A stretch of DNA of 64,000 nucleotides from a phage, in NCBI GenBank assembly GCA_024875585.1, contig GCA_024875585.1_4107.1; one strand, given 5' to 3'. Shown in pieces: positions 1,567-21,878 of this stretch. Numbering within the stretch: the stretch's first letter is position 1; every line of letters begins with the position of its first letter. Position numbers and translations under genes: made by a program. The notes beneath the pieces were generated by a model, which did not search any database, was not told where the DNA came from, and was given only the letters and a program-made list of their open reading frames with translations.

Positions 1567-1605
1567 TAGGGGAAAGAAATTAAATCAACTTAAGAGGATA
1601 GTAAA

Positions 1606-1875: not shown

Positions 1876-1926
1876 TCAAAACAACGTTAGCGGTCGATTT
1901 AGGCCGCTTATACTGGGGATTATATA

Positions 1927-2199
1927 ATGAATACTAATCAAGTACTGAATGAGATTGAAAGCATCATTAAACCGATGAAGCGTACTGATGCTATGTTAAC
2001 ACCGGAAGAATGCCGCCTTTATGAGCGTTACAGCGTCGAACAAGTCCAGGCAATGGCTATGGCTACCCCAGCCGTTAAACAGCCTGAGAACGCGTTACAG
2101 GACGTTACAGGGGATTATATCATCAATCCAGTACTAGGGAAGATGGAAGCAATCACCGAAGAACAAAAAGACTACTTAAGCCAGTACTTAAAAGGTTAA
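1927..2199 (+). CDS. hypothetical protein (90 aa)
   Basis: ORF; weak SD. Confidence 0.55.
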   Translation: MNTNQVLNEIESIIKPMKRTDAMLTPEECRLYERYSVEQVQAMAMATPAVKQPENALQDVTGDYIINPVLGKMEAITEEQKDYLSQYLKG

Positions 2200-2204
2200 T
2201 TAAT

Positions 2205-2414
2205 ATGCTTACTGTACAGGATAAGATCGACATCTTAAAGGTTAATATGTATGTGATTGATGCAGATCCTGAAAAAGTATTTGCATACGATGATTCTAAT
2301 CGTAGTCCTTTTTATTGTAGTCATGTAGTTGGATATGTGCCGTTATCGTATGTTATCGAAAGAGTGGTTGATTCAGCATACAAACATTTTTTAGAAAATA
2401 GTACTTGCAATTAG
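2205..2414 (+). CDS. hypothetical protein (69 aa)
   Basis: ORF 5 nt after previous stop; SD AAAGG. Confidence 0.55.
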   Translation: MLTVQDKIDILKVNMYVIDADPEKVFAYDDSNRSPFYCSHVVGYVPLSYVIERVVDSAYKHFLENSTCN

Positions 2415-2432
2415 TTTTTAGTACTGTATAAT
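2405..2432 (+). promoter_or_regulatory. sigma70-type promoter, class I
   Basis: TTGCAA / TATAAT; followed by leader hairpin 2446-2464. Confidence 0.6.
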
Positions 2433-2482
2433 GTTTTACATGAAGGGGGGAAATGATTCTCCCCAATAACAGGAGAAACAAA

Positions 2483-2635
2483 ATGAAACAATACAACGCT
2501 CGGTTTGATGTTACTATCGGCAACGGCAAAGGTCAATTCTCTTTCAGTACTCGTAAGAGTTATACAGAAAACTTCTTGCGTAATTGTGCACTGACCGCCG
2601 CACAAATTAAACATTATTTTCAGGCTAAAAAATGA
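2483..2635 (+). CDS. hypothetical protein (50 aa)
   Basis: start moved from track 2453 (ATG inside leader hairpin) to ATG after SD AGGAGAAACA. Confidence 0.6.
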   Translation: MKQYNARFDVTIGNGKGQFSFSTRKSYTENFLRNCALTAAQIKHYFQAKK

Positions 2636-2721
2636 AATCATTAGCTTATTATAGCTCGGCCCTGGTCGGTGCATTGATCGCGGCATTGTTAGTAGCTTAT
2701 CTATTCTTTATGGTGATTTAA
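2632..2721 (+). CDS. small hydrophobic membrane peptide (29 aa)
   Basis: ATGA stop/start overlap; MKSLAYYSSALVGALIAALLVAYLFFMVI. Confidence 0.45.
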   Translation: MKSLAYYSSALVGALIAALLVAYLFFMVI

Positions 2722-2859
2722 ATGAATCCTAACGGTATAATTTACAGTACTCCTAAAACGAAAGCAGATAAAGCGGAAGCACGTAAAGCGAAAGTAAAGG
2801 AGTACATCAAGCAAGGTATGACACGAAAGGCGGCGATTCTAAAAGCTAAAAATAAATGA
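2722..2859 (+). CDS. small basic protein (45 aa)
   Basis: ATG one nt after previous stop; Lys/Ala-rich. Confidence 0.45.
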   Translation: MNPNGIIYSTPKTKADKAEARKAKVKEYIKQGMTRKAAILKAKNK

Positions 2860-2955
2860 AAAAAAGTGGTTGACTTCGGTCAGCCATTTTGCTATTATAT
2901 ATTCATTGAGAGATAGCTCACTAGCCCACAGGGTGCGGGAGTGTATCTATTATAT
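2860..2955 (+). repeat. repeated intergenic element copy 1 (terminator hairpin + embedded TTGACT-N17-TATTAT + conserved tail)
   Basis: ~95-bp sequence repeated at 6270, 9275, 11565; hairpin GGTTGAC-TTCG-GTCAGCC then T-run. Confidence 0.65.
2867..2890 (+). terminator. rho-independent terminator
   Basis: stem GGTTGAC/GTCAGCC, TTCG loop, ATTTTG tail. Confidence 0.6.
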
Positions 2956-3002
2956 AAGTATTGAGTACTGAAAACTATTTTAAAAGTACATGTAGAAAGT
3001 AC

Positions 3003-3030
3003 TTGTAAACTATGTTTAAAGGCGTATAAT
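3003..3030 (+). promoter_or_regulatory. sigma70-type promoter, class I
   Basis: TTGTAA / TATAAT; leader hairpin GGGAAACGGTTTCCC follows. Confidence 0.55.
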
Positions 3031-3082
3031 GTTTTACATCGAGAGCGGGAAACGGTTTCCCCTAGTAATAAGGAATAAAATC

Positions 3083-3424
3083 ATGACTATTGCAATTGTA
3101 CAATCTAACTTTGAAAACGAAATCATCGCCCAAGCACTGCGTTTAAATGATGGTCGGGCCGAAATTAATTACGGTTTCAATTCAGGCGGTTGTGAAAAAT
3201 ATCAGTACTTTATAACTGCTGATGGCGGTGTCCTGGGTATTAATACAGTTATTGTAAACATTCAGAAAATTAATTTCAATGATCCAGACGATAGCCAGTT
3301 TTACATTGTAGGCGTAGACGTGAACTATGAGGATGACTCACTAACTGATGATTACACTGGCGAGAAGTTAGAAAGTGCATACGGTGAAGATGATTATCAG
3401 TCAGTACCGGAAGATTTTGAATAA
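3083..3424 (+). CDS. hypothetical acidic protein (113 aa)
   Basis: start moved from track 3029 to ATG after SD AAGGAATAAAATC. Confidence 0.65.
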   Translation: MTIAIVQSNFENEIIAQALRLNDGRAEINYGFNSGGCEKYQYFITADGGVLGINTVIVNIQKINFNDPDDSQFYIVGVDVNYEDDSLTDDYTGEKLESAYGEDDYQSVPEDFE

Positions 3425-3438
3425 TATTAAAAAATAGT

Positions 3439-3466
3439 TTGACAATAGATTATAGTACTGTATAAT
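3439..3466 (+). promoter_or_regulatory. sigma70-type promoter (TTGACA-N16-TATAAT)
   Basis: TTGACA 3439-3444, TATAAT 3461-3466. Confidence 0.6.
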
Positions 3467-3485
3467 AGTTTACATCAAGGGCGAC

Positions 3486-3528
3486 GGGAAGTTTTAAAAA
3501 CTTCCCTATAGGGAGAATAGTTCTCCCC
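3486..3528 (+). promoter_or_regulatory. tandem 5' leader hairpins (GGGAAGTTT-TAAAA-AACTTCCC and GGGAGAA-TAG-TTCTCCC)
   Basis: two perfect inverted repeats in leader; same pair at 5580-5623 and 9763-9804. Confidence 0.6.
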
Positions 3529-3548
3529 ACTAACAGAGAGAAAACAAA

Positions 3549-3761
3549 ATGGCTAATATCTGCACTGTACTGAAAAATGCAAAACAAGTTTTATTTTCTG
3601 ATCACGATCATTTAAACAAGGATATTACTGGCGTTCGGAATATCAAAGATGTAAAACGTGTTATGGGTATCTATTGCAATATGAAACGTGTCGGCACGTT
3701 CGGTAATAAATTTCTATACCAGGCGGGGGATTACAATTTTACACTGACTATCATTAACTAA
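3549..3761 (+). CDS. hypothetical protein (70 aa)
   Basis: ORF+SD after structured leader. Confidence 0.7.
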   Translation: MANICTVLKNAKQVLFSDHDHLNKDITGVRNIKDVKRVMGIYCNMKRVGTFGNKFLYQAGDYNFTLTIIN

Positions 3762-3780
3762 AAATATTATCACAGTACTA

Positions 3781-3809
3781 TTGACATAGATTGATAGTAC
3801 TGGCATAAT
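3781..3809 (+). promoter_or_regulatory. sigma70-type promoter, class III (third copy)
   Basis: TTGACA 3781-3786, CATAAT 3804-3809. Confidence 0.6.
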
Positions 3810-3840
3810 AGATTTTATTAAAACAACTGAGGAAATTAAA

Positions 3841-4020
3841 ATGGCTATCATCGCAAAAACTGAAATCATCGGCCTGGATTCTATCATCATGACGTTTGAA
3901 GATCAAAAAGGTATGTATGTAGTTTCCTATGGTGATTATGTTCGGGAGTATGAAACGGTAGACGAAGCCTTTGAAAGTTACATTCGCCAGGTGAATAAAG
4001 CATACGACGATTACCGCTAA
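3841..4020 (+). CDS. hypothetical protein (59 aa); paralog of 886..1098
   Basis: ATG after SD GAGGAAATTAAA; below track cutoff. Confidence 0.6.
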   Translation: MAIIAKTEIIGLDSIIMTFEDQKGMYVVSYGDYVREYETVDEAFESYIRQVNKAYDDYR

Positions 4021-4047
4021 AATATATTACCAGTACTATCAAAGCTA

Positions 4048-4075
4048 TTGACAACGTTTGATAGTACTGTATAAT
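4048..4075 (+). promoter_or_regulatory. sigma70-type promoter (TTGACA-N16-TATAAT)
   Basis: TTGACA 4048-4053, TATAAT 4070-4075. Confidence 0.55.
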
Positions 4076-4121
4076 AAGTTTTATCAACTGTAGTTAACTT
4101 AACAAAAGAGAGAGAAACAAA

Positions 4122-4265
4122 ATGATCGCACTGGATTCATTCATCGATGCAGTTCTGGCAAAAACTGGCGAGGATCTGACCGCAGAACAATACGCAATGA
4201 TCGAGCAATGCCAGCAAGACGGTAAATCGGTGAAAGATACTGTTAAGATTATCCGCAAGATGTAA
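4122..4265 (+). CDS. hypothetical small acidic protein (47 aa)
   Basis: ATG after SD AAGAGAGAGA; below cutoff; hairpin follows. Confidence 0.55.
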   Translation: MIALDSFIDAVLAKTGEDLTAEQYAMIEQCQQDGKSVKDTVKIIRKM

Positions 4266-4371
4266 GATTATAAGCCCATTAGTTAACGCTGGTGGGCTTT
4301 AATCATTTACCCTATACAATGCCAGTACTAAACCGTTTATCTCGTTAGAATGCATTACAGGACGTTTGACA

Positions 4372-4569
4372 ATGATTAGCATGAAATCAGTACAAAAACA
4401 AATAGAAACATTATCAAAAATTAAACGTAAACAGTACTCATTAGAATATAATATCAATGGTAACTATCATCTAATGAAAGAGAATAATTTTATCGTCATT
4501 GATGAATCATTGCAAATTATTAGTATAGTACTGAAAGCATTAATTAATGATAGAAAAAGGTTAAAATAA
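4372..4569 (+). CDS. hypothetical protein (65 aa)
   Basis: track ORF starts at TTG 4366; first ATG used; start uncertain. Confidence 0.4.
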   Translation: MISMKSVQKQIETLSKIKRKQYSLEYNINGNYHLMKENNFIVIDESLQIISIVLKALINDRKRLK

Positions 4570-4826
4570 TGGCAGTAGGATTCGCGAAAGATGGAGCCGA
4601 GCAAGATGAGATTAACGCAGTTATTCAAGCCGCCGTTAACCACGCTAGAAAGCAAATTAACGCACAAATAGAATCACTGATACATTGCCTCGACTGCGGC
4701 GATAAAATCCCTGAGAATCGCCGACAGGCTGTTAAGGGATGTAAGTACTGCATAACCTGCCAGGAAGATCATGATAGTACTTTTAAAAGAGATCCGCGTA
4801 ATTGTTGGCATAGATCTATGAGATAA
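4569..4826 (+). CDS. DksA/TraR-family C4 zinc-finger protein
   Basis: CLDCGDKIPENRRQAV-x5-CITCQ, the CxxC-x17-CxxC spacing of TraR/DksA proteins. Confidence 0.65.
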   Translation: MAVGFAKDGAEQDEINAVIQAAVNHARKQINAQIESLIHCLDCGDKIPENRRQAVKGCKYCITCQEDHDSTFKRDPRNCWHRSMR

Positions 4827-4833
4827 AAAGTAA

Positions 4834-4861
4834 TTGACAGTACTGAAAGATAGTGTATAAT
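4834..4861 (+). promoter_or_regulatory. sigma70-type promoter
   Basis: TTGACA 4834-4839, TATAAT 4856-4861. Confidence 0.55.
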
Positions 4862-4890
4862 GTTTTATATCTTAACTGAGGATAGAAATC

Positions 4891-5247
4891 ATGGGAATAC
4901 AACATATCACGCGGACCACTGACAATGGCGAGATCACTGGTTATCAAGTACAGGGCAAAGTAGCACAATTGCAGTACTGGTTTGTTAAACGTGGAATCAT
5001 TGCACCGGATCTTGATTATGACCGTGTAGCGTTTATTGATTCTCTTTATGTTGATCCTGATAGTCGGGGCAATGGTGAAGGTAACGAATTAATGAATGCC
5101 TTTATTGATGCTGCCGATGATTCAGATTGTATCATTTTAGAATGCGATACGGGAGAAGATAACGCCTTCAATCTTAAAGAATGGTACGAAGGTTTCGGAT
5201 TCGAAGTACTGATCGATAGTGAATATCCTATCATGATTTTATCATAG
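4891..5247 (+). CDS. GNAT-family N-acetyltransferase (putative)
   Basis: FIDSLYVDPDSRGNGEGNELMNAFID resembles GNAT motif A (acetyl-CoA binding loop). Confidence 0.5.
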   Translation: MGIQHITRTTDNGEITGYQVQGKVAQLQYWFVKRGIIAPDLDYDRVAFIDSLYVDPDSRGNGEGNELMNAFIDAADDSDCIILECDTGEDNAFNLKEWYEGFGFEVLIDSEYPIMILS

Positions 5248-5261
5248 TACTAAAAAAGTAA

Positions 5262-5289
5262 TTGACAGTACTATCAGATAGTGTATAAT
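5262..5289 (+). promoter_or_regulatory. sigma70-type promoter
   Basis: TTGACA / TATAAT; leader hairpin GGGGAAACATCTTCCCC 5302-5318. Confidence 0.55.
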
Positions 5290-5330
5290 GTTTTACATAG
5301 AGGGGAAACATCTTCCCCTACTAAGAGGAA

Positions 5331-5525
5331 ATGAAAATGGAAAAATTATCAAGTATTTTAGTACAAGATGATTTTGGTAATCCTGGAAGTGCTATCATTG
5401 TTCGGGGTAATAAAGCAACGTTTGTTATTGCTGGTGGACCTGTACAGCGTAGCATTAAAAACAATGCTGTTACTATTAATAATGTACGCTATCGCTTAGA
5501 TAAAGAATTGATTCATAAACTTTAA
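5331..5525 (+). CDS. hypothetical protein (64 aa)
   Basis: ORF+SD TAAGAGG. Confidence 0.65.
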   Translation: MKMEKLSSILVQDDFGNPGSAIIVRGNKATFVIAGGPVQRSIKNNAVTINNVRYRLDKELIHKL

Positions 5526-5532
5526 AAAGTAC

Positions 5533-5560
5533 TTGCAATTAGTTTTTAGTACTGTATAAT
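5533..5560 (+). promoter_or_regulatory. sigma70-type promoter, class I
   Basis: TTGCAA / TATAAT; two leader hairpins 5580-5623. Confidence 0.6.
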
Positions 5561-5640
5561 AGTTTACATGAAAGGCAACGGGAAGTTTAAAAACTTCCCT
5601 AAAGGGGGAAATGATTCTCCCCACTAAGAGGAAAGAAAAA

Positions 5641-5853
5641 ATGCAAGGTCAACTAATCGTTCGTAAATGGTCTGATACTAATGAAAAACCGTGGGATGTA
5701 CAATACATCGGACCGGATGGGGTATCACGTTATCAGCCAGGCGTAACGCATAGTACTGAGCAATATGCCGCCGCTCATCGTGAACGCCTGTTAGAATCTA
5801 TGCAACAGGGTTTAGGTGAAAAATTCATTCAAGATCATTGGCTGAAAGATTAA
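5641..5853 (+). CDS. hypothetical protein (70 aa)
   Basis: start moved from 5611 (inside hairpin) to ATG after SD AAGAGGAAAG. Confidence 0.65.
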   Translation: MQGQLIVRKWSDTNEKPWDVQYIGPDGVSRYQPGVTHSTEQYAAAHRERLLESMQQGLGEKFIQDHWLKD

Positions 5854-5860
5854 AAAGTAC

Positions 5861-5888
5861 TTGTGTAGTATAGAAAATAAAGTATAAT
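5861..5888 (+). promoter_or_regulatory. sigma70-type promoter, class I
   Basis: TTGTGT / TATAAT; leader hairpin 5902-5918. Confidence 0.55.
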
Positions 5889-5939
5889 GTTTAATACAGG
5901 AAGGGGAATAGTTCCCCTCCTAACAAAAAGGAAAGTAAC

Positions 5940-6113
5940 ATGATTCATGTAGAATTGTCAGTACTGAGAGATTTGTTTTATCGGATGGGTACTACTGGCG
6001 AATATCCGAAGGGTGATACTGCAAAACTTTTTGTATCTCTCGACTTATGGCAACGCGAACAATTAGTAATGTCGTGGCGTAAAGGTAAAGCAGATCGCGA
6101 GGTGAAAGCATGA
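5940..6113 (+). CDS. hypothetical protein (57 aa)
   Basis: ATG after SD AAAAGGAAAG; below cutoff. Confidence 0.5.
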   Translation: MIHVELSVLRDLFYRMGTTGEYPKGDTAKLFVSLDLWQREQLVMSWRKGKADREVKA

Positions 6114-6259
6114 AAGAATTTTTATTCGAAGTAGTTTTTATTGGTGTAAGTAGTCACCAATTGATTCGCTCAAGTGGTTATAATGTTTGCCAGGCATGGA
6201 ATAACATTAAACAAATGTACCCGAACGCTATCACATATCGCAACCCAAAACAAGTTTAA
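6110..6259 (+). CDS. hypothetical protein (49 aa)
   Basis: ATGA overlap with previous ORF; below cutoff. Confidence 0.4.
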   Translation: MKEFLFEVVFIGVSSHQLIRSSGYNVCQAWNNIKQMYPNAITYRNPKQV

Positions 6260-6269
6260 AAATAATTAA

Positions 6270-6362
6270 AAAAAGGATTGACTTCGGTCAGTCCTTTTTG
6301 CTATTATATATTCATTGAGAGATAGCTCACTGACCCATAGGGTGCGGAAGTGTATCTATTAT
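6270..6362 (+). repeat. repeated intergenic element copy 2
   Basis: hairpin GGATTGAC-TTCG-GTCAGTCC carries a compensatory pair change relative to copy 1. Confidence 0.65.
6274..6299 (+). terminator. rho-independent terminator
   Basis: stem + TTTTTG. Confidence 0.6.
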
Positions 6363-6412
6363 ATGCTGGTGGGTGTATTATCTAGTACTGAAAACTATTT
6401 GATAAAAAGTAC

Positions 6413-6440
6413 TTGCATTGTACTTAGAATCAAGTATAAT
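6413..6440 (+). promoter_or_regulatory. sigma70-type promoter, class I, with no ORF downstream
   Basis: TTGCAT / TATAAT; followed by ~80 nt without ORF before the next promoter. Confidence 0.5.
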
Positions 6441-6446
6441 GTTTTA

Positions 6447-6525
6447 CATCAGGACGGGGAACGAAATAAGTAAATCCCTGTTAAGTAGCCCAGGAGTAAG
6501 GCATACGAAAAACTCCCCTGATAAA
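6447..6525 (+). ncRNA. candidate small RNA or leader-only transcript
   Basis: promoter-driven ORF-free segment with GGGGA...TCCCC pairing potential. Confidence 0.25.
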
Positions 6526-6530
6526 ATAGT

Positions 6531-6559
6531 TTGACAATAATTTTAAGTACTGATAAAAT
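6531..6559 (+). promoter_or_regulatory. sigma70-type promoter, class II (second copy)
   Basis: TTGACA 6531-6536, A/T-rich -10. Confidence 0.5.
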
Positions 6560-6591
6560 AATCACATCAACTACTGATAAGGAAACATAAA

Positions 6592-6867
6592 ATGCGGGTT
6601 CTTCTGACAGCTAACGAAATCGAGCAAGTACTTACTACTAACCTGGAACAATGGAAACGTGAAGCAGATATCCAGGCGGTTCAATTGTTAAATGAGAAGT
6701 TAACGCCGGATGATTTAAGTAAGATTGTAGATCCTCAATTCTACGAAGATATTCACGACACCGCGTTAAGCGTCGAGGATGTACTAGATAAGCACTACAT
6801 TGATACTAATTTACAGGGTTACGGTCGTAAAAATTTTATTACTATTCACGACATTTACAATAATTAA
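6592..6867 (+). CDS. hypothetical protein (91 aa)
   Basis: ORF+SD TAAGGAAACA. Confidence 0.7.
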   Translation: MRVLLTANEIEQVLTTNLEQWKREADIQAVQLLNEKLTPDDLSKIVDPQFYEDIHDTALSVEDVLDKHYIDTNLQGYGRKNFITIHDIYNN

Positions 6868-6870
6868 GTA

Positions 6871-6898
6871 TTGACAAAGTATCTTAGTACTGTATAAT
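6871..6898 (+). promoter_or_regulatory. sigma70-type promoter, class IV (GTATTGACAAAGTATCTTAGTACTGTATAAT)
   Basis: TTGACA / TATAAT; leader hairpin 6913-6931. Confidence 0.6.
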
Positions 6899-6952
6899 AG
6901 TTTACATCAAGTGAGGGGAATGGTTCCCCTCCTAACAAAGAGAGAAATAAAA

Positions 6953-7135
6953 ATGGCTAAGTGCACTATCTGTAAGAAAGAAATCGTATTAGTTCCAAGT
7001 GCCCGTGAGCGTGCCGCTCGGTTCGGTGGCAAAGCGTCAGACTATACAAAAATGTTTACTACTCATGCAAATTGCCAGGTAGCAAAACGTTCACAAGAAA
7101 GCGTAGAATTAATGCGTAAACTTTCCAAAAAATAA
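6953..7135 (+). CDS. small Cys-containing protein (60 aa), possible zinc-binding
   Basis: start moved from 6911; MAKCTICKK...HANCQ. Confidence 0.6.
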   Translation: MAKCTICKKEIVLVPSARERAARFGGKASDYTKMFTTHANCQVAKRSQESVELMRKLSKK

Positions 7136-7138
7136 GTA

Positions 7139-7166
7139 TTGACAAAGTATCTTAGTACTGTATAAT
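7139..7166 (+). promoter_or_regulatory. sigma70-type promoter, class IV (second copy)
   Basis: near-identical to 6868-6900; leader hairpin 7181-7200. Confidence 0.6.
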
Positions 7167-7221
7167 AGTTTACATCAAGTGAGGGGAAACGGTTCCCCTC
7201 CTAACAAAGAGAGAAATAAAA

Positions 7222-7545
7222 ATGACTATGATCCTTGCCCAGAAAGTAGAACTGAAAATTGTAACTTCCTTTGACATTAAAGTTAATCGCTGGACTGATC
7301 GGAACGGTAATACTTACCACTCTTGCTACGTGTCTGCATTGATTGGTGATCGTTGGGAAGACTTGGGACACGAAACCTTTACATACGGTTATGGTACGCA
7401 AGGCGAATACACTGGTTTGGAGATCATTAAAGAAACCGTTATAGGTTTCAACCCGAAAGAAAAAGTTATTCACCGCATCGAAAAAGAGATTAACAAAGAA
7501 ATAACAGTTCGCTACTACGATGTAAAACGTAAGAAAGACATGTAA
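7222..7545 (+). CDS. hypothetical protein (107 aa); paralog of 1181..1525
   Basis: ORF+SD; FTYGYG and C-terminal VKRKKD shared. Confidence 0.7.
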   Translation: MTMILAQKVELKIVTSFDIKVNRWTDRNGNTYHSCYVSALIGDRWEDLGHETFTYGYGTQGEYTGLEIIKETVIGFNPKEKVIHRIEKEINKEITVRYYDVKRKKDM

Positions 7546-7567
7546 TAGAATCCATTTAAAGTACTAT

Positions 7568-7596
7568 TTGACATTACACAGATAGTACTTTATAAT
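7568..7596 (+). promoter_or_regulatory. sigma70-type promoter
   Basis: TTGACA-N17-TATAAT. Confidence 0.55.
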
Positions 7597-7640
7597 AGAC
7601 TCTAACTTGTAGTACTAACTTAACTAATAGGATGTATACC

Positions 7641-8036
7641 ATGATTACTAAATTCTACGCTACCCGTGAAGCTGCCCGTATTGTTGCACGCGAGGAAGGA
7701 GCGGCATTTAAAGACATGGGCAAAGATGCACCGAAAGGCCAACGCTGGAGCGTACAGTTCAAAGAAATCTCTGATATTGTGAATTCACCTGAACCAGTAC
7801 TGACAGCAGCAGAACAGAAGAAAGCTGATGAACTGGCGGCAATTCTTAACGCTCAAGATGAATTCGTCGAGGGTGCTGATATCCAGGTTGTAGTAAATTC
7901 GAATGCATGGACTCACGCGGATCATCTGGCTAACCTGAAGCGTCCAAGCGTACTGATTCGCAACCAGAAAGAGATCCGTCATGACCGTAAGGGTAATCGT
8001 GTAACAGTATACAGTAAACGCCGCCAGGTTATCTAA
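7641..8036 (+). CDS. hypothetical protein (131 aa), GC-richer than neighbours
   Basis: ORF; start ATG 7641 or 7632; host-like codon usage by eye. Confidence 0.6.
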   Translation: MITKFYATREAARIVAREEGAAFKDMGKDAPKGQRWSVQFKEISDIVNSPEPVLTAAEQKKADELAAILNAQDEFVEGADIQVVVNSNAWTHADHLANLKRPSVLIRNQKEIRHDRKGNRVTVYSKRRQVI

Positions 8037-8058
8037 TAACTTGCAGTTCTAACAACAC

Positions 8059-8083
8059 GGCGGGATCTGTTCCCGCCTTTTTT
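8059..8083 (+). terminator. rho-independent terminator
   Basis: GGCGGGA-TCTGT-TCCCGCC then TTTTTT. Confidence 0.75.
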
Positions 8084-8098
8084 ACAGGATAAACTAAA

Positions 8099-8353
8099 AT
8101 GATTAAGGTAAAACTATCTAAAGATAATATCTTGCGGGTACACTATAAAGCCCCTCAGAGAATCATCACAAAGGCCGTACAGCTTGCGAATGAGTTTATT
8201 AATGGTAATCTATTACCTAGGAAGTTAAGCAACGGAAAACTGCGTGTAATCGATGTAGACACTAACAACAGAATAGTAATAGAGAATACCGGAAAGATAA
8301 ACCTATATGAACACCAACAATATAATAAGAAAATAAAACTAATTAGTCGTTGA
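8099..8353 (+). CDS. hypothetical protein (84 aa)
   Basis: ORF+SD AGGATAAACTAAA. Confidence 0.65.
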   Translation: MIKVKLSKDNILRVHYKAPQRIITKAVQLANEFINGNLLPRKLSNGKLRVIDVDTNNRIVIENTGKINLYEHQQYNKKIKLISR

Positions 8354-8378
8354 CAGTACTCAAATGTTTTAGTACTAT
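8350..8378 (+). promoter_or_regulatory. sigma70-type promoter (TTGACAGTACTCAAAT...TACTAT)
   Basis: TTGACA-N17-TACTAT. Confidence 0.5.
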
Positions 8379-8407
8379 ATATCTATACCAACACGGAGAG
8401 AAACAAA

Positions 8408-8626
8408 ATGAAATTATCTAAAATCGAAAAGAAAACTATTGACGTAGCTATCCAACATGGTTACACATTTCGTAATGATTTACATTTTACCAATTTTCAA
8501 CAAGGGTATCGTACTATTAAAAAACTAATTGACAAAGGTTTATTAGTTAAAGTAGACAACGGCAACGGCGTTGAATATCAACCAACACAGGACGCATTTA
8601 ATTTTAAGAAATATAATATTATCTAA
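8408..8626 (+). CDS. hypothetical protein (72 aa)
   Basis: ORF+SD CGGAGAGAAACA. Confidence 0.65.
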   Translation: MKLSKIEKKTIDVAIQHGYTFRNDLHFTNFQQGYRTIKKLIDKGLLVKVDNGNGVEYQPTQDAFNFKKYNII

Positions 8627-8655
8627 TTGACAGTACTCAAATATTTTAGTACTAT
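8627..8655 (+). promoter_or_regulatory. sigma70-type promoter (copy of 8350 module)
   Basis: TTGACAGTACTCAAAT...TACTAT. Confidence 0.5.
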
Positions 8656-8682
8656 ATCTATACCAACACAGGAAAAAACAAA

Positions 8683-9267
8683 ATGCGTAATTATACTAAA
8701 TTCATCCGTACACTGTCAGAAATGGAAACCAACAAAGAGATCTTGACAGCTTGTCGGTTAGCTGGTCTGGAGATCATCGGTGCGGGGTCTTCCCGTATTG
8801 TATTCGCTTTAAATGATCGGTTAGTGATTAAGGTCGCGAATTGTGATGCAGGTGTAGAACAAAATGAAACAGAATGTAAAGTATGGAATTTTTTAGATTA
8901 TGACCGCCCTCAGTTGAAACAGTTCTTTGCTAAAGTACATATGCATTTAAGCGATCCTGATAATATGTTTATTGTTATGGATCGGTTGAGTACTGCAAGT
9001 AAAGGCAGTGTAAAGCACGTTAATGCGTGCAACGAATTAAAGTACAATATTAAACGTAATGCCATTGAACGCCAACACCGCTTTGCTGATGCACTACAAC
9101 ACGTAGATGATACATTATCAACACTAACGATTAGAGATATCAGAAAACAGAATATCGGCCAGGATCGAAATGGACTGATTAAAGTACTTGATTATGGTTT
9201 AACCCGCAATATCTGGAATCAGTACTATAAAAAGCGTGATGTAGCAGCAAGTAAGGTAACACGATAA
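8683..9267 (+). CDS. putative protein kinase-like protein (194 aa)
   Basis: IGAGSSRIVF...VIKVA (Gly-loop + Lys), RDIRKQNIG (catalytic-loop-like), LDYGL (DFG-like); from memory, unverified. Confidence 0.4.
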   Translation: MRNYTKFIRTLSEMETNKEILTACRLAGLEIIGAGSSRIVFALNDRLVIKVANCDAGVEQNETECKVWNFLDYDRPQLKQFFAKVHMHLSDPDNMFIVMDRLSTASKGSVKHVNACNELKYNIKRNAIERQHRFADALQHVDDTLSTLTIRDIRKQNIGQDRNGLIKVLDYGLTRNIWNQYYKKRDVAASKVTR

Positions 9268-9274
9268 AAAAGAT

Positions 9275-9372
9275 TAAAAAAGGGATTGACTCCGGTCAGT
9301 CCCTTTGCTATTATATATTCATTGAGAGATAACTCACTGACCCATAGGGTGCGGGAGTGTATCTATTATATA
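9275..9372 (+). repeat. repeated intergenic element copy 3
   Basis: hairpin GGGATTGAC-TCCG-GTCAGTCCC + conserved tail. Confidence 0.65.
9282..9307 (+). terminator. rho-independent terminator
   Basis: stem + TTTG. Confidence 0.55.
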
Positions 9373-9407
9373 AGTATTGAGTACTGAAAACTATTTTTAA
9401 AAAGTAC

Positions 9408-9435
9408 TTGCAATGTACTTAGAATCAAGTATAAT
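9408..9435 (+). promoter_or_regulatory. sigma70-type promoter, class I
   Basis: TTGCAA / TATAAT; leader hairpin 9450-9468. Confidence 0.6.
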
Positions 9436-9489
9436 GTTTTATATCGAGAGGGGGAAATGGTTCTCCCCAATACAATAAGGAATAAAATC

Positions 9490-9711
9490 ATGACTACAAT
9501 GACTTGCATTTACGCTTCCAATCTTCTGAATGATGCGGCCTTTAATGTTGATTCAGAATATCAATGTTATCGGGATGAAAATAAAAAAGTTTTTGTAGTT
9601 GATAATAATGGTTTCCATATTGAATTGCAATCCGGCTTCACTGGCGTTGATGGTAAATCAGTATGGGGCGTACAGGATGATAAAGGTACATATCATTTTA
9701 AACGTAATTAA
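9490..9711 (+). CDS. hypothetical protein (73 aa)
   Basis: start moved from 9457 to ATG after SD TAAGGAATAAAATC. Confidence 0.65.
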   Translation: MTTMTCIYASNLLNDAAFNVDSEYQCYRDENKKVFVVDNNGFHIELQSGFTGVDGKSVWGVQDDKGTYHFKRN

Positions 9712-9714
9712 GTA

Positions 9715-9742
9715 TTGACAAAGTATCTTAGTACTGTATAAT
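9715..9742 (+). promoter_or_regulatory. sigma70-type promoter, class IV
   Basis: TTGACA / TATAAT; two leader hairpins 9763-9804. Confidence 0.6.
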
Positions 9743-9826
9743 AGTTTACATCAAGGGCAACGGGAAGTTTTTAAAACTTCCCTATAGGGAGAATAGATCT
9801 CCCCGATACTAAAAGGAAACAAAAAT

Positions 9827-10099
9827 ATGTCTAGCTACTCCGCTACTATGATCATTAAAGATATGAACGGTAATCCTACTGCTGCTGGTGGATCATTTGG
9901 AAACATTAACTTAGATGGTCGGTTAACCATGCAATCAGCCATCAATGCAGCGAAAGAAGTTTTTAAGAATGAATGCACTGTAAGTAAGCTGGATTATATG
10001 GGATTCGCTATCGAGAAAACTAATCGTTTTGTGAACTACAAAAATCCACTGATGATTGATACCAACCTGAAAGCTAACGAAGTGGAATACTTATTATGA
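9827..10099 (+). CDS. hypothetical protein (90 aa)
   Basis: ORF+SD AAAAGGAAACA. Confidence 0.7.
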   Translation: MSSYSATMIIKDMNGNPTAAGGSFGNINLDGRLTMQSAINAAKEVFKNECTVSKLDYMGFAIEKTNRFVNYKNPLMIDTNLKANEVEYLL

Positions 10100-10287
10100 C
10101 AGTTGAAGAAGTTAAAAAAGTACTGGCAGTTCTACGCTATCATAATCATTGCAAGGTGAAGAATGATCCTGATTATCTTGATTCATCCCTTGAGGAAGAC
10201 ACATTAAACGCAATAAGCTATATGCAAACATTATTAAAACGTATGACCGAAAAGAATAGACCGGACTATATCGGAAATAAAATTTAA
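10096..10287 (+). CDS. hypothetical protein (63 aa)
   Basis: ATGA overlap with upstream gene. Confidence 0.55.
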   Translation: MTVEEVKKVLAVLRYHNHCKVKNDPDYLDSSLEEDTLNAISYMQTLLKRMTEKNRPDYIGNKI

Positions 10288-10294
10288 AAAGTAC

Positions 10295-10322
10295 TTGCAT
10301 TGTAGTTAGATTAACGTATAAT
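10295..10322 (+). promoter_or_regulatory. sigma70-type promoter, class I
   Basis: TTGCAT / TATAAT; leader hairpin 10337-10353. Confidence 0.6.
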
Positions 10323-10373
10323 GTTTTATATCGAGAGGGGAAATGGTTTCCCCTCAAGTCCAGGAGATACACA

Positions 10374-10637
10374 ATGAACACTATCGAAATCACTATCAAT
10401 GCTCACGTATACGACAACGTAGTACTGCAAACTACTATGACCGCTAATGATACCAGAACTTTGCGGAATACTGTTATAAGTGCCGTATGTGCTGCAATTG
10501 GTGATGTATCCCTGGAAAATGCAGAACATATCAACAACGGTTTCACTATGTGCAAACGTGATAACGCAAAACATATCATCGTAGAAGGTTACGGCGGTGT
10601 AGAATATAATCTTTATATGAAAAAAGTACTTGCATAG
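10374..10637 (+). CDS. hypothetical protein (87 aa)
   Basis: ORF+SD CAGGAGATACACA. Confidence 0.7.
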   Translation: MNTIEITINAHVYDNVVLQTTMTANDTRTLRNTVISAVCAAIGDVSLENAEHINNGFTMCKRDNAKHIIVEGYGGVEYNLYMKKVLA

Positions 10638-10657
10638 TAACTAAAACAAAGTATAAT
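10629..10657 (+). promoter_or_regulatory. sigma70-type promoter, class I (overlaps 3' end of previous CDS)
   Basis: TTGCAT / TATAAT; leader hairpin GGGGGAG-ATATC-CTCCCCC. Confidence 0.55.
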
Positions 10658-10704
10658 GTTTTGCATAGGGGGAGATATCCTCCCCCACTAAAAGGAGTAC
10701 TAAA

Positions 10705-10929
10705 ATGGCTAACTTTGATGAACTGATGCGGGAAGTAGCTACCCTGGCAGAAGAGAAGAAATCATTTGATTCTATCTATAACACCTCTTACCGTGATTCA
10801 GTACTGGCATGTAACCAGGATCAAAAAGATGAACTAATCGCCACCTATCATGAAGCGTGGAAGTATTACCGCCAATGGGAGAAAGAAGAAAGTGAGTCTA
10901 CCATTGACGGCCTCAATAATCTAATCTAA
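10705..10929 (+). CDS. hypothetical acidic protein (74 aa)
   Basis: ORF+SD AAAAGGAGTAC. Confidence 0.7.
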   Translation: MANFDELMREVATLAEEKKSFDSIYNTSYRDSVLACNQDQKDELIATYHEAWKYYRQWEKEESESTIDGLNNLI

Positions 10930-10947
10930 AGTTTTATTTCAGTACTA

Positions 10948-10976
10948 TTGACATAGATTGATAGTACTGATATGAT
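10948..10976 (+). promoter_or_regulatory. sigma70-type promoter, class III variant
   Basis: TTGACATAGATTGATAGTACTGA-TATGAT. Confidence 0.55.
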
Positions 10977-11004
10977 AACTTTACTAACTACAAGGGGAAA
11001 CATC

Positions 11005-11262
11005 ATGGAACAATTCACACAATATCGGGTAAATCCTCAAGCTATGGCATACGTAGAAGACCATAAAACGTTACCAGTACAAACACCAATTAAAGGCCAT
11101 ATCTATCGTGCAATGTCATGGAATCCGGCCCAGGATGGCTATAAAACCGTAGCCGTGGGTATGTACTGCGGTAATGGTGAATGGTTTGATCCTAACAATC
11201 CGATTGCACTTGATAGTACTGAAAAAATGAAATGGGCCGACTACATCGAAGATATTTCATAA
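11005..11262 (+). CDS. hypothetical protein (85 aa)
   Basis: start moved from 10972 to ATG after SD CAAGGGGAAACATC. Confidence 0.6.
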   Translation: MEQFTQYRVNPQAMAYVEDHKTLPVQTPIKGHIYRAMSWNPAQDGYKTVAVGMYCGNGEWFDPNNPIALDSTEKMKWADYIEDIS

Positions 11263-11268
11263 AAATTA

Positions 11269-11297
11269 TTTGACAGTACTAACCAGTAATGTATAAT
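11269..11297 (+). promoter_or_regulatory. sigma70-type promoter
   Basis: TTGACA-N17-TATAAT; leader hairpin with covarying GCGGGGG/CTCCCGC. Confidence 0.6.
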
Positions 11298-11352
11298 GTT
11301 TTACATAGAGCGGGGGAATAGTTCTCCCGCCAATAGTTTGGAGTAAAACATT

Positions 11353-11553
11353 ATGTCTATCGCTATCGCCCTGGTCGAAGTACTGAAAGAAGCTAAAGCC
11401 AACCTTATCGATGTACAGATTAAGGAATTGCAAAATGGCTTAATCGGCTGTACTTGTACCGCTGGTGGCCCGTCAGACTATCGGGAATTCGAATCACTTG
11501 AATCGATGGTCCGTTATCTTACAATCATCGTAGAAGATTGGAGAATCATCTAA
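11353..11553 (+). CDS. hypothetical protein (66 aa)
   Basis: ORF+SD TTTGGAGTAAAACATT. Confidence 0.65.
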   Translation: MSIAIALVEVLKEAKANLIDVQIKELQNGLIGCTCTAGGPSDYREFESLESMVRYLTIIVEDWRII

Positions 11554-11564
11554 CAAAAAAAAAG

Positions 11565-11660
11565 AATAAAAAGGGATTGACTCCGGTCAGTCCCTTTGCT
11601 ATTATATACGCATAGACAAAAACTAGCCCACAGGGTGCATAGGTGTATCTAAAATATATA
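11565..11660 (+). repeat. repeated intergenic element copy 4 (diverged tail)
   Basis: same hairpin as copy 3; downstream half partly diverged. Confidence 0.55.
11573..11598 (+). terminator. rho-independent terminator
   Basis: GGGATTGAC-TCCG-GTCAGTCCC + TTTG. Confidence 0.55.
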
Positions 11661-11716
11661 GTTAATAACGGTGAGTAACCATCTGCTGGTGGAGTGAAAA
11701 CTATTAATAAAAAGTA

Positions 11717-11746
11717 TTGACAAAGTATATCAGTACTGCAATAATG
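11717..11746 (+). promoter_or_regulatory. sigma70-type promoter
   Basis: TTGACA, AGTACTG, A/T-rich -10. Confidence 0.45.
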
Positions 11747-11799
11747 TATCTCGTAGGGCGGCAATGGTGCGACGGCCCACAAAGTTAGGAGATACACAA

Positions 11800-12132
11800 A
11801 TGAGTACTTCAATCGCTATCGTTAAAGCTTTCATCCGTACCAACGTTTCATCTGTATTCATTGACGGATTGGATCGGGAAGTAGAATACTCAATCATTAT
11901 CGCACAAACGGCAAACGGTGCTCGGTACATCCTTAATGATAGTGAAGCAAATCACTACTACTTCACTAAAGCCACTGGCTTTAAACGCATCGATGCTGAT
12001 GTAGTATACGCTAAGATGAATAAGCTGGTAGATAAGATTAACACTAAAGGTACTATCGATTTACAGTACTGGACCGAAACCGATCCAGAATATGGATCTC
12101 ACCGCTACCTGAATCCAGGTATTAAAATGTAA
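11800..12132 (+). CDS. hypothetical protein (110 aa)
   Basis: start moved from 11764 to ATG after SD TTAGGAGATACACAA. Confidence 0.65.
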   Translation: MSTSIAIVKAFIRTNVSSVFIDGLDREVEYSIIIAQTANGARYILNDSEANHYYFTKATGFKRIDADVVYAKMNKLVDKINTKGTIDLQYWTETDPEYGSHRYLNPGIKM

Positions 12133-12167: not shown

Positions 12168-12221
12168 GTTTTTCATAGAGAGGGGGAAATGGTTCTCCCT
12201 CATAAATTAAGGAGTTTTATC

Positions 12222-12623
12222 ATGACCTTCTCAATCACTTCCTTCGCTGACGTTTTAGTACTGGCTCGGACTTTTGGCAAAGCTGGCCTTGAGCACGCTG
12301 TAAGTAATGGTTATATGCACCCGGAATATTGCCGCATTATCGGTAGCTGCAAACGTTGGGCCGTGTCCCGTAATATTGAGATTGAAAACTTCAATGATGG
12401 TAACAACGAATATACAGTTGATGCAGTATTCGAATCCGTTGATCTCGGCGGTATCTATAACACTAACCTGAATGATGTGCGTATCGTTCGCACGGGGTTC
12501 GGTGCTTATGATGTATCTATCCGTGAAGCGATGGACAAGGGATACATTAGCAAGGATCAGTTAGCTTACATTATGCAGCAGACTAAAGAGCGTAATGAAG
12601 CACGCACTATCTTAGGTCTGTAA
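12222..12623 (+). CDS. hypothetical protein (133 aa)
   Basis: start moved from 12189 to ATG after SD TAAGGAGTTTTATC. Confidence 0.65.
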   Translation: MTFSITSFADVLVLARTFGKAGLEHAVSNGYMHPEYCRIIGSCKRWAVSRNIEIENFNDGNNEYTVDAVFESVDLGGIYNTNLNDVRIVRTGFGAYDVSIREAMDKGYISKDQLAYIMQQTKERNEARTILGL

Positions 12624-12648: not shown

Positions 12649-12666
12649 GGCCGCTCTCTAGCGGCC
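12649..12666 (+). repeat. palindrome GGCCGCT-CTCT-AGCGGCC
   Basis: perfect 7-bp inverted repeat, GC-rich, no T-tract. Confidence 0.35.
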
Positions 12667-12691: not shown

Positions 12692-12901
12692 ATGATCTAT
12701 ACAGTATACAGCGTTCTAGGCACTATTGCAGGTGTACACGATAACGTCGATGATACTATGAGTACAGTACTGCAACAGGTTCCACTAAAGCCTAAGACAG
12801 TTAAGAAGATGACCGCACGACTAACCAGGGCGACGGCTGGCGTGGAAGTATGGCAGGACTACGGGGATACACAGGTAATCGTAAGCGTAACGAGGGATTA
12901 A
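12692..12901 (+). CDS. hypothetical protein (69 aa)
   Basis: ORF+SD CAGGAGTACATACAC. Confidence 0.6.
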   Translation: MIYTVYSVLGTIAGVHDNVDDTMSTVLQQVPLKPKTVKKMTARLTRATAGVEVWQDYGDTQVIVSVTRD

Positions 12902-12929
12902 TACGTAAAATGATTTAGTACTGATTCAG

Positions 12930-12995
12930 AAAAAAGTCAAGGCGTTTTTAAAATTATGCGTTAAAAAAATGCATAGGTAATCCCTTGACTTTTTT
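12930..12995 (+). repeat. large inverted repeat AAAAAAGTCAAGG...CCTTGACTTTTTT
   Basis: 13-nt arms ~40 nt apart enclosing smaller palindromes; sits between early module and Family A array. Confidence 0.5.
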
Positions 12996-13150
12996 GAAAT
13001 AAAAGGGATTGGACTATGGCAAAATGCGTAGGGGGGCTAAAGTGCGGGTAACTTAGCGGCTTCGATAAAGGGGTATTACGAATAAAATGTTATTGACTTT
13101 TTATATAAATCGTATAAAATATGATTGATAATAATTTTAAGGGAGTCCCT

Positions 13151-13348
13151 GTGCGTATTTTAACTCAAGCAGAACACCACGAAAGACTTATCAATAACAT
13201 GGCTATGATAATGTATAAGTCCCATGACCGTGGTATTGCCTATAAGCGTGAATTAGTACTGGAACTATTCATTGGAACTAACTTTCAGGAAAGGTATGTC
13301 AACGATTGGATTTGGTATTTAATTGAAGATATAACGAGTAAACTATGA
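13151..13348 (+). CDS. Family A small paralog (LGTNYQE-motif protein)
   Basis: motif FIGTNFQERYV; start set to GTG after SD AAGGGAG (track 13121) by alignment to paralogs. Confidence 0.55.
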   Translation: MRILTQAEHHERLINNMAMIMYKSHDRGIAYKRELVLELFIGTNFQERYVNDWIWYLIEDITSKL

Positions 13349-21324: not shown

Positions 21325-21878
21325 ATGAGATAGAGTTATTAGCACACAAGATAAGTACAATAATGCTTATCCTCAATAACAACCATCCTATATCGCAGAT
21401 AGATGGAATCCTGAGTCAGAGGACAGGTGGTAGTTTATATTTGTCCCTAAACGCAAATATCGCAAGGAAATACATTGACATTGGTGATGTTGATGCTGAA
21501 ATCGAATGTGATACAACTGGAATTGTTGATGTAGGTGCATTAATCAGTTCAAATCCTGTATCAGTATCCCCGTTGACCAAAGGTGTTAGTACAGGATTCG
21601 AAGGATATTTGTGGTATAATGCTAATGATAATTATTTTATATATCAGCATTCTAATACAAATTATGATGAAGATAAATTTGAGTTCATTGACCCTTATGA
21701 TGAAGCTGGAGTATTTCAACAATCATTAATCACAAAACCACATCAAATGATGTATCTAATGTTATTCAGTACAATGAATTTGAATCCATTAATTAATGGT
21801 TTAAAGTTTTATATTCAATTGAATTTGGTTCATGTAGTTTATGATTTATTAATGCAAGGATATAGTTATGAAGTATAA
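21321..21878 (+). CDS. Family B paralog
   Basis: AGVFQQSLITK; ATGA overlap. Confidence 0.6.
   Translation: MNEIELLAHKISTIMLILNNNHPISQIDGILSQRTGGSLYLSLNANIARKYIDIGDVDAEIECDTTGIVDVGALISSNPVSVSPLTKGVSTGFEGYLWYNANDNYFIYQHSNTNYDEDKFEFIDPYDEAGVFQQSLITKPHQMMYLMLFSTMNLNPLINGLKFYIQLNLVHVVYDLLMQGYSYEV

Follow-up and report, generated by a model that had tools for sequence, protein, structure and literature searches.

A nested inverted repeat near the predicted right end of the direct terminal repeat of an Asteriusvirus jumbo phage: a putative terminator within a conserved boundary module

Introduction

Long direct terminal repeats (DTRs) are found in T5-like, SPO1-like and Rak2-like phages as exact repeats of about 20 kb that are full of early genes. 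To our knowledge, the signals that define the ends of such repeats are poorly known in any phage, and the duplication of a 20-kb repeat during packaging is a standing question. Long DTRs have been published for fEgEco12, Sharanji, G17, vB_Ec-M-J, fENko-Kae01, CBB and PA5oct. The DTR of Asteriusvirus is already published, and the palindrome examined below is of a known kind. Reported repeat lengths are 20,993 bp in fEgEco12, based on PhageTerm and restriction digests (PMC13070987), 20,668 bp in Sharanji, based on PhageTerm (PMC11895373), about 20 kb in G17, based on coverage (PMC6563267), and 19,736 bp in fENko-Kae01, based on PhageTerm (PMC11218385); the repeat annotated in CBB has 22,456 bp and is coverage-based. 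PA5oct, a related jumbo phage, shows high early transcription of its terminal-repeat genes (PMC7318152). The literature on the ends of fEgEco12, Sharanji, G17, CBB and Kae01 gives repeat lengths, and describes neither the boundary sequence nor the CT/TAGCG end, the module of about 150 nt or the palindrome that are reported below (a slash marks the cut throughout).

Several better-described systems offer points of comparison for a palindrome close to a chromosome end. Textbook intrinsic terminators have loops of 3-8 nt. For phage T7, duplication of the terminal repeat primed by a hairpin has been proposed as a model, as has, for a long time, the Watson-type model of priming from staggered nicks; we know of no demonstration of the latter for long repeats. 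End processing at the T7 concatemer junction requires a pause. In phage lambda, the binding sites are all found to one side of where the DNA is nicked, and R3 and R2 are brought close to each other by a bend (PMC4856287). The injection-stop region of T5, at the right end of the left terminal repeat, extends over 1.66 kb and contains about eight ordered DnaA boxes and many repeats (10.1101/866236).

The locus described here is a non-coding gap in an Asteriusvirus genome that carries a perfect inverted repeat. Like the long-DTR phages above, this phage would have an exact repeat of about 20 kb full of early genes, and the gap would be the inner (right) edge of that repeat, corresponding to the physical right end of the virion DNA.

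Results

The window is the whole stretch of phage DNA that was analysed, 64,000 nt of contig GCA_024875585.1_4107.1 (GenBank assembly GCA_024875585.1). Based on megablast matches of 87-92% identity over 2.5 kb, it comes from Asteriusvirus, the 121Q / PBECO4 / G17 group of E. coli jumbo phages with genomes of about 350 kb, and over the 281 nt surrounding the gap its identity to twelve records is 95-97.5%. The repeat part of the window contains densely packed small genes on the plus strand, with near-consensus sigma-70 promoters of a fixed design, agtactaTTGACA...agtacTGtATAAT. The last operon of the DTR starts from the sigma-70 promoter at 11717 and comprises genes at 11764-12132, 12189-12623 and 12692-12901, the third of which (plus strand, from the ORF list) encodes a protein of 69 aa and is the last gene of the DTR. 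It is followed by the gap at 12902-13150. The initial annotation had described a gap of about 250 bp without open reading frames, which agrees with the ORF list, and had called it locally more AT-rich; this applies to 12902-12999 (27.6% GC) and 13076-13151 (22.4% GC) but not to 13000-13075 (48.7% GC), nor to the gap as a whole (32.4% GC vs 33.1% for the window). Towards the end of the gap, a promoter scan identified a plus-strand sigma-70 promoter, TTGACT-16-TAAAAT at 13093-13120, for the first gene outside the repeat (the 'Family A' array). This promoter is kept in all Asteriusvirus and in EJP2, and is deleted in Salmonella phage SD-15_S21. The first gene of the unique region, at 13151-13348 on the plus strand, has a GTG start at 13151 after AAGGGAG, where relatives have ATG, and a shorter form of it is annotated in 121Q, G17 and others. 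For transcription from the 13093 promoter, an ATG at 13121 would lie upstream of the expected start.

The gap almost certainly contains the right boundary of a DTR of about 20-21 kb and would thus be more than a junction between two gene modules. In the annotation of vB_Ec-M-J, direct terminal repeats are given as 1-21525, and window positions 12880-13160 map to 21352-21633 of that record. Exact terminal recurrence, with 0 mismatches, extends over 21,525 bases in vB_Ec-M-J, 20,107 in E9.1 and 20,668 in G17, all of them phage-oriented records whose second copies may be the depositor's duplication. The right ends of these three records all read ...GGGTAACCT (longer: ...GCGTAGGGGGCTAAAGGGCGGGTAACCT), and the internal copy continues with TAGCGAC. 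The counterpart in the window is ...GGGTAACT/TAGCGG, which places the homologous cut point of the window's own phage, as a predicted right chromosome end, at 13053/13054 (±1). Via alignment, the published repeat lengths of fEgEco12 and Sharanji map to the same position. Moreover, the annotated ends of Kae01 and CBB fall exactly at CT/TAGC and the Kaldavass record ends at the aligned ...GTAATGCT; hence three further lineages agree on the end. The consensus of the cut in Asteriusvirus, Kae01 and CBB is GTAAySCT/TAGCs, and the motif is also present in EJP2 and XbC2; the window is one C shorter at this point than its relatives (AACT/TAGCG vs AACCT/TAGCG). Synteny breakpoints, which the initial annotation had proposed to compare, gave a consistent picture, with homology breaking just after about 13060-13072 in PBECO4, the Salmonella SD phages and Turkey5/JNE01. 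The window carries a single copy of the repeat. The sequence of the left terminus (AGTAGGCAGAGGAAGTCTGCC; expected left end AGTAGGCAGAGG) was searched for and not found in the window, which therefore begins some 7-8 kb inside the repeat.

The 69-aa protein has tblastn homologues in 53 phage records (Asteriusvirus, the Kae01/Munch group, the RaK2/K64-1 group, XbC2 and Kaldavass), with 32-42% identity in EJP2, Munch / 7t3 / fENko-Kae01, RaK2 / K64-1, XbC2 and Kaldavass; CBB also has a homologue, which is unannotated there. In every lineage checked but RaK2, this homologue is the last gene before the repeat end. RaK2 has the homologue with another gene directly 3' of it, and a recognisable downstream module was not found there. 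Neither the 69-aa protein nor a conserved DNA word of 22 nt had matches in IMG/VR.

Downstream of the 69-aa gene, a non-coding module of about 150 nt has the same order of blocks in all checked lineages but RaK2: GGATTTAAGTACT, an A-run with GTCAAG (the left arm of the palindrome), the box AAAATGCATAGGTAATCCCTTGACTTTT, about 21 nt, GACTATG, about 35 nt, and TAAAGG-GTAAC-CT/TAGCG. The box, identified by cross-lineage comparison at 12966-12993 on the plus strand, consists of the 3' part of the palindrome's spacer and most of its right arm. The box shares 21 identical nt with Pectobacterium phage CBB and 18 (GGTAATCCCTTGACTTTT) with Erwinia phage Kaldavass and Xanthomonas phage XbC2, despite a neighbouring protein that is only about 33% identical. 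There is one copy of the box per repeat and none at the left boundary. This right box has decayed in EJP2 and CBB. The left arm is the most variable piece of the module; Kaldavass, Kae01 and CBB have it, XbC2 has a decayed homologue, Turkey5, JNE01 and EJP2 are without it, and the spacing between the arms ranges from 9 to 40 nt between lineages. The block GATTGGACTATG, with the core GACTATG, lies at 13007-13018 on the plus strand, about 21 nt after TTGACT and about 35-37 nt before the repeat end. It is present in all Asteriusvirus, including Turkey5 and JNE01, and in Kae01/Munch, and takes the form GACTATG, GACCTATG or GCACTATG in XbC2, Kaldavass, EJP2 and CBB. The cut-site block itself, CTAAAGTGCGGGTAACT/TAGCG, occupies 13037-13058 on the plus strand. 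The blocks nearest the cut (GACTATG ... TAAAGG-GTAAC-CT/TAGCG) are the universally retained part of the module. Judged by these alignments, the site at which the repeat ends is conserved, and so is the box to which the palindrome's right arm belongs. A packaging site had been among the functions initially suggested for the palindrome; the gap does hold the predicted right end of the DTR at 13053/13054, but what the relatives all keep are the cut-site blocks and not the palindrome.

Two other sequence elements of the gap were considered. An imperfect palindrome centred on AGTACT (TGATTTAGTACTGATTCA, 12911-12928) is kept in all Asteriusvirus relatives. A role for it in marking the repeat end was rejected: CAGTACTG occurs 37 times in the window, and the AGTACT motif is a component of early promoters genome-wide, so that the element is not specific to the gap. 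GTAATC repeats common to both boundaries have 40 matches in the window, too many to be meaningful at the right boundary.

The palindrome itself consists of a left arm, AAAAAAGTCAAGG (an A-run followed by GTCAAGG), at 12930-12942 and a right arm, CCTTGACTTTTTT, at 12983-12995, which would supply the 3' half of the stem and a U6 tract. The arms, located by an inverted-repeat search, are separated by a spacer of 40 nt and are complementary at 13/13 positions, as the initial annotation had stated. Chance does not account for such repeats: the window contains 5 perfect inverted repeats with arms of 13 nt or longer and a loop of up to 60 nt against 0.14 expected, the null being first-order Markov simulations with a maximum of 1 in 100. 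In folding analyses, the RNA fold of 12890-13060 had z = -3.4 and the DNA fold of 12925-13000 z = -4.6, with 0/200 shuffles as good in either case. Within the spacer, both RNA and DNA folds gave an inner hairpin, UUAUGCGUU-AAAAA-AAUGCAUAG at 12954-12976 on the plus strand, in which 12954-12962 and 12968-12976 form 9 RNA pairs including 2 G-U (-7.1 kcal/mol). At the DNA level, it is a mere 5-bp TATGC/GCATA repeat (the slash here separating the two halves). Of the nested smaller palindromes described initially, the inner RNA hairpin thus exists, but it is weak and, as shown below, not conserved. The arms do not belong to a repeat family, since CCTTGACTTTTTT with up to 2 mismatches retrieved the two arms and otherwise chance-level matches (6 vs 3.5 expected). 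A known RNA family was also dismissed, the best Rfam match being bglG-cis-reg with 24 bits vs a gathering score of 80 (E = 0.09), which we took to be a chance hit.

An alignment of 15 phages was used to assess conservation within the genus. Both arms are invariant in the main Asteriusvirus clade, so that covariation is uninformative there, and the whole gap is 88-95% identical. In MJ, TH47, Turkey3 and CMSTMSU, the T-run is interrupted by a T-to-A change (TTTTAT), and the 5' arm of the inner hairpin is altered with no compensation; the structure of the inner hairpin is therefore not conserved. The divergent pair Turkey5 and JNE01 is without both arms and the box AAAATGCATAGGTAATCCCTTGACTTTT, and retains AGGGATTGGACTATG, GCGTGGGGGG, GGGTAACCT/TAGCG and the downstream promoter, including the GATTGGACTATG block and GTAACCT/TAGCG. 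The part of the gap inside the repeat (12902-13054) is better conserved than the flanking genes in 121Q, PBECO4, ph0011 and ELP22, with 94.8% in 121Q compared to 87.1% and 87.6% for the flanking genes, and is not better conserved than them in UE-S1, TH47, CMSTMSU, Turkey3 and MJ.

With slightly better than even confidence, we read the inverted repeat as a putative intrinsic (Rho-independent) terminator that closes the last sigma-70 early operon of the DTR. The RNA of the 11717 operon would form a two-tier hairpin, in which an outer stem of GUCAAGG and CCUUGAC is joined by the inner hairpin as a helper, followed by U6. Host RNA polymerase would let go of the transcript around 12996-13000, early transcription would thereby be held back from crossing the repeat boundary, and the next module would use its own promoter at 13093. 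The core hairpin has a predicted free energy of -15.9 kcal/mol, within the usual range for E. coli and phage intrinsic terminators, and is followed directly by the U6 tract (12990-12995). With these terminators, including those of the upstream A-tract type, the element shares the A-run, the G-C-paired stem and the U6 tract, as well as the placement past a stop codon and ahead of the next promoter: it lies 29-94 nt past the stop codon (12901) and 98 nt ahead of the strong 13093 promoter, and all genes are co-directional. Only four of the plus-strand runs of five or more T in the first 20 kb directly follow an enclosing hairpin, the most stable being that of the palindrome.

A scan for hairpins and U-runs covered the homologous stretch of nine phages. 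In most lineages tested, the sequence from the stop codon to the repeat end includes a hairpin with a terminal U-run: Kae01 has a nested hairpin with a U-run (-16.5 kcal/mol), and Kaldavass and XbC2 have hairpins with U-runs of -10.0 and -7.5 kcal/mol, respectively. Turkey5 (AAUGCGUAAAA...UUUUAUGCAUU+U4, -8.6 kcal/mol) and EJP2 (AAGUACUG...CAGUACUU+UU, -9.8 kcal/mol) form theirs from unrelated sequence. Weak hairpins, above -7 kcal/mol, were found in JNE01 (-4.3 kcal/mol) and CBB (-6.1 and -3.7 kcal/mol). In addition, one stem pair is compensated, being C:G in Kaldavass and G:C in XbC2 and the window. A structure kept by replacement and compensation, as this pattern would suggest, is what a terminator predicts, and this is why a terminator is the preferred reading. 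Several observations speak against it. The 'loop' has 40 nt, partly occupied by the 9-pair inner hairpin, in comparison with 3-8 nt in described terminators, and because it is so far beyond that range standard predictors miss the hairpin: no terminator is annotated in the gap in the G17 (ARNold) or UE-S1 records, and a consensus terminator scan made no call in the gap. The T-run is interrupted and the inner hairpin damaged in the MJ group, and the substitutes in JNE01 and CBB are weak. Unlike in described terminators, the 3' arm is conserved in sequence across lineages, and the second direction has no evident use. The initial annotation had recognised the shape of a bidirectional intrinsic terminator; the A-run, stem and T-run, with the -15.9 kcal/mol core and U6, bear out the terminator shape, but bidirectionality would be without purpose because every surrounding gene is on the plus strand.

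Discussion

The palindrome itself is probably an ordinary terminator, and it probably sits inside a cis-acting module read by the end-processing machinery, to which it may contribute. Across lineages, the right arm and the 17 nt preceding it have kept their sequence. An RNA hairpin alone needs no such conservation, so that a DNA-level function is indicated as well, and the overlap of the right arm with a deeply conserved box makes a second role in end recognition possible. In a rival explanation that we consider rather unlikely, the arms would be paired recognition boxes for the packaging or end-processing machinery, similar to lambda cosB, and would form a hairpin only incidentally. A nuclease would be positioned at CT/TAGCG by two inverted copies of TTGACTTTT with a bendable A/T-tract spacer, 58-124 bp to one side of the cut. 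These candidate boxes lie at -58 to -70 and -111 to -123 from the cut with an A/T-tract spacer between them, and this geometry resembles the cosN-I2-R3-I1-R2 arrangement of lambda (PMC4856287). As in lambda cos (cosN - I2 - cosB with R3, I1, R2 and R1), conserved blocks are found within about 125 bp to one side of the cut, a pair of related boxes flanks an A/T-tract spacer, and the module stays on the packaged DNA. The conservation of AAAATGCATAGGTAATCCCTTGACTTTT across lineages next to a protein of about 33% identity, the constant order and spacing (box, about 21 nt, GACTATG, about 35 nt, cut) and the restriction of the module to the right boundary, with one copy per repeat, all favour such boxes. 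However, Turkey5 and JNE01 are without arms and box yet retain GATTGGACTATG and GTAACCT/TAGCG, the right box has decayed in EJP2 and CBB, the left arm is the least conserved piece, and an arm spacing of anywhere between 9 and 40 nt is easier to reconcile with a hairpin than with a rigid protein dimer. Lambda cos also differs in having cohesive ends, where the present phage has a 20-kb repeat with two cut points, and there is no homology to the lambda sites. Nor is an IHF site supported: the candidate in the right arm (12978-12990), a one-mismatch match to the consensus, is at chance level, with 229 such matches vs 207 expected from shuffles.

The remaining explanations have less in their favour. 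That the element is a functionless relic, an inverted duplication of a -35 / hairpin cassette retained solely because the clade is young, is improbable. Hairpins containing TTGAC abound in the repeat, for example AAAGGGATTGACTCCGGTCAGTCCCTTT at 2870, 6278, 9286 and 11577, neither arm has a usable -10 element, and the 88-95% identity of the gap in the main clade means that the invariance of the arms says little. On the other hand, a homologously placed left arm occurs in XbC2, Kaldavass, CBB and Kae01, one pair is compensated, perfect 13-nt repeats are about 35 times rarer under the Markov null than observed, and 12902-13054 outconserves the flanking genes in several close relatives (121Q, PBECO4, ph0011, ELP22). 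Still less probable is a role in linking the repeat boundary to DNA entry or to transcription. The element could act as a T5-like injection stop, where transfer halts once the early-gene repeat has entered, or as a pause like that at the T7 concatemer junction, where a stalled polymerase marks the place of end processing. The T5-like layout, with small early genes under host promoters and palindromes in the non-coding inner edge of an early-gene repeat at its right end, and the position of the terminator-like element next to the cut are consistent with this. In contrast to the 1.66-kb T5 region with its ordered DnaA boxes and many repeat families, though, the gap measures 250 nt and has no DnaA box and a single repeat pair; two-step injection is not reported in the literature on the terminal repeats of these phages, and Turkey5 and JNE01 are missing the element. 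Duplication of the repeat from a T7-type hairpin primer was discarded as well, the palindrome being on the wrong side, inside the terminal repeat, where its right arm ends 58 nt before 13053/13054. We give hardly any credence to a replication origin, which the initial annotation had listed as an option, or to a divergent promoter/operator pair formed by two outward-facing TTGACT hexamers. The low GC content of 12902-12999 (27.6%) and the TTGACT in both arms, a 5/6 match to the -35 consensus, would suit them. Yet the cumulative GC skew, a check proposed at the outset, rises monotonically with no inflection near 13 kb, and DnaA boxes and iterons were not found in the gap, which leaves only an AT-rich stretch for an origin. 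DnaA boxes (TTWTNCACA) are absent between 3199 and 14849, and the window total of 13 equals chance expectation (13.25). As for promoters, no -10 element lies 16-18 nt from either hexamer (ATTGGA on the plus strand, TAAATC on the minus strand), and the minus strand encodes nothing; neither arm forms a complete promoter with a -10 at 16-18 nt on either strand, in the window or in the other lineages.

Returning to the terminator within its conserved surroundings, we put forward as a tentative and rather unlikely proposal that the palindrome is part of a cross-lineage Rak2-like 'right-end module' new to the literature, in which the terminator-like hairpin/box, GACTATG and GTAAC-CT/TAGCG would jointly direct end processing; a polymerase stalled or terminating at the hairpin could help to mark the site. 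The comparison allows the repeat end to be predicted to the base in a phage whose record has no such information. CT/TAGCG and the module of about 150 nt, common to jumbo phages of Escherichia, Klebsiella, Salmonella, Erwinia, Pectobacterium and Xanthomonas, are targets for mutation and binding tests, and the end motif permits the correct orientation and trimming of many Rak2-like records that were deposited permuted or collapsed.

The sequences flanking the two boundaries offer a lead on how the repeat might be duplicated. Their geometry would fit opposite-strand nicks 20 kb apart, each leaving a ...GCTA-3'OH that primes strand-displacement duplication of the repeat, as in the Watson-type model. 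This idea of staggered nicks is a lead and not a result, because it concerns a match of 4-5 nt in three homologous lineages whose ends were determined by others. Outside the repeat, the left flank reads ...CCACTA/ in Asteriusvirus, and in Kae01 and CBB it reads ...CCGCTA/. The corresponding sequence at the right boundary, taken from the opposite strand, is ...TCGCTA/ in Asteriusvirus, ...TGGCTA/ in Kae01 and ...TCGCTA/ in CBB. Inverted copies of GCTA, with the cut at the same position, bracket the repeat (...GCTA/ repeat /TAGC...), the left copy being ACTA in Asteriusvirus.

Motifs and non-coding DNA at the ends of the terminal repeat

The terminal repeat is flanked on its outside by inverted copies of one short motif in three lineages, reading ...C[A/G]CTA immediately before the repeat and TAGC[G/C]... 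immediately after it. The left-hand copy was located at position 2894 of the E9.1 sequence piece L005, 2371 of the Kae01 piece L020 and 425 of the CBB piece L028, and the right-hand copy at 13053/13054 of the window, where the slash denotes the predicted cut. This inverted arrangement fits staggered nicks on opposite strands. The left terminus itself opens with a short palindrome that varies by lineage, being AGTAGGCAGAggaagTCTGCCgTACT in Asteriusvirus (L005 2894-2920) and TATCTTCTctgtataAGAAGATA in Kae01 (L020 2371-2393). In E9.1, the left boundary is straddled by approximately 2 kb of non-coding DNA (L005 2300-4600) containing 12 CAGTACTG sites, GTAATCA repeats that are phased at 10 bp and occur to the left and right of the cut, and tandem repeats of 16 nt resembling CGGCTAAACGGCTAGA (L005 3700-3795).

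Variation at the right end among relatives

The right-end module of the window deviates slightly from that of all relatives at three places: G6 instead of G5 (13031-13036), AACT/TAGCG instead of AACCT/TAGCG at the predicted cut (13050-13054), and, in the first gene outside the repeat, a GTG start codon where the relatives have ATG (13151). The 13-nt inverted repeat of the gap is replaced in Turkey5 (L008) and JNE01 (L009) by unrelated AT-rich sequence, which holds a second copy of the cut-site motif ACCTTAGCG. In Turkey5, 81 nt that reach from the 3' end of the last repeat gene into the beginning of the gap are also duplicated in tandem (L008 1519-1680). In Salmonella phage SD-15_S21, the first gene outside the repeat has lost its sigma-70 promoter by deletion (L010 1690-1700 versus window 13072-13146), and transcription of the gene array there would therefore have to come from a different promoter or from read-through. 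The SD records also fall short of the others in length by 20-40 kb. For CBB, a 66-aa open reading frame lacking annotation (L022 492-692; KU574722 22091-22291) was found to be homologous to the gene that closes the terminal repeat in the window.

Promoters, hairpins and inverted repeats within the window

In the terminal repeat, the early promoters (window 284-11717; for example at 824, 3781, 6871, 9715 and 10948) have a fixed layout of agtactaTTGACA, spacer and agtacTGtATAAT with an extended -10. Much of the strong excess of the palindrome CAGTACTG, which occurs 37 times in the 64-kb window, is explained by this shared design. At four intergenic positions (2870, 6278, 9286 and 11577) lie near-identical elements, AAAGGGATTGACTCCGGTCAGTCCCTTT-GCTATTATAT, each with a 12-pair hairpin that covers both the -35 hexamer and the spacer of a sigma-70 promoter. 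They thus look like a terminator and promoter in one; their homologues are annotated as terminators in G17. The last two genes of the repeat have a GC-rich hairpin, GGCCGCTCTCTAGCGGCC, between them (12649-12666). It has neither a U-tract nor a nearby promoter, and may therefore serve in RNA processing or stability. Four further inverted repeats that are perfect over 13-15 nt and enclose loops of 8-50 nt (4031-4069, 48117-48151, 51837-51912 and 56202-56239) were detected, far more than expected by chance.
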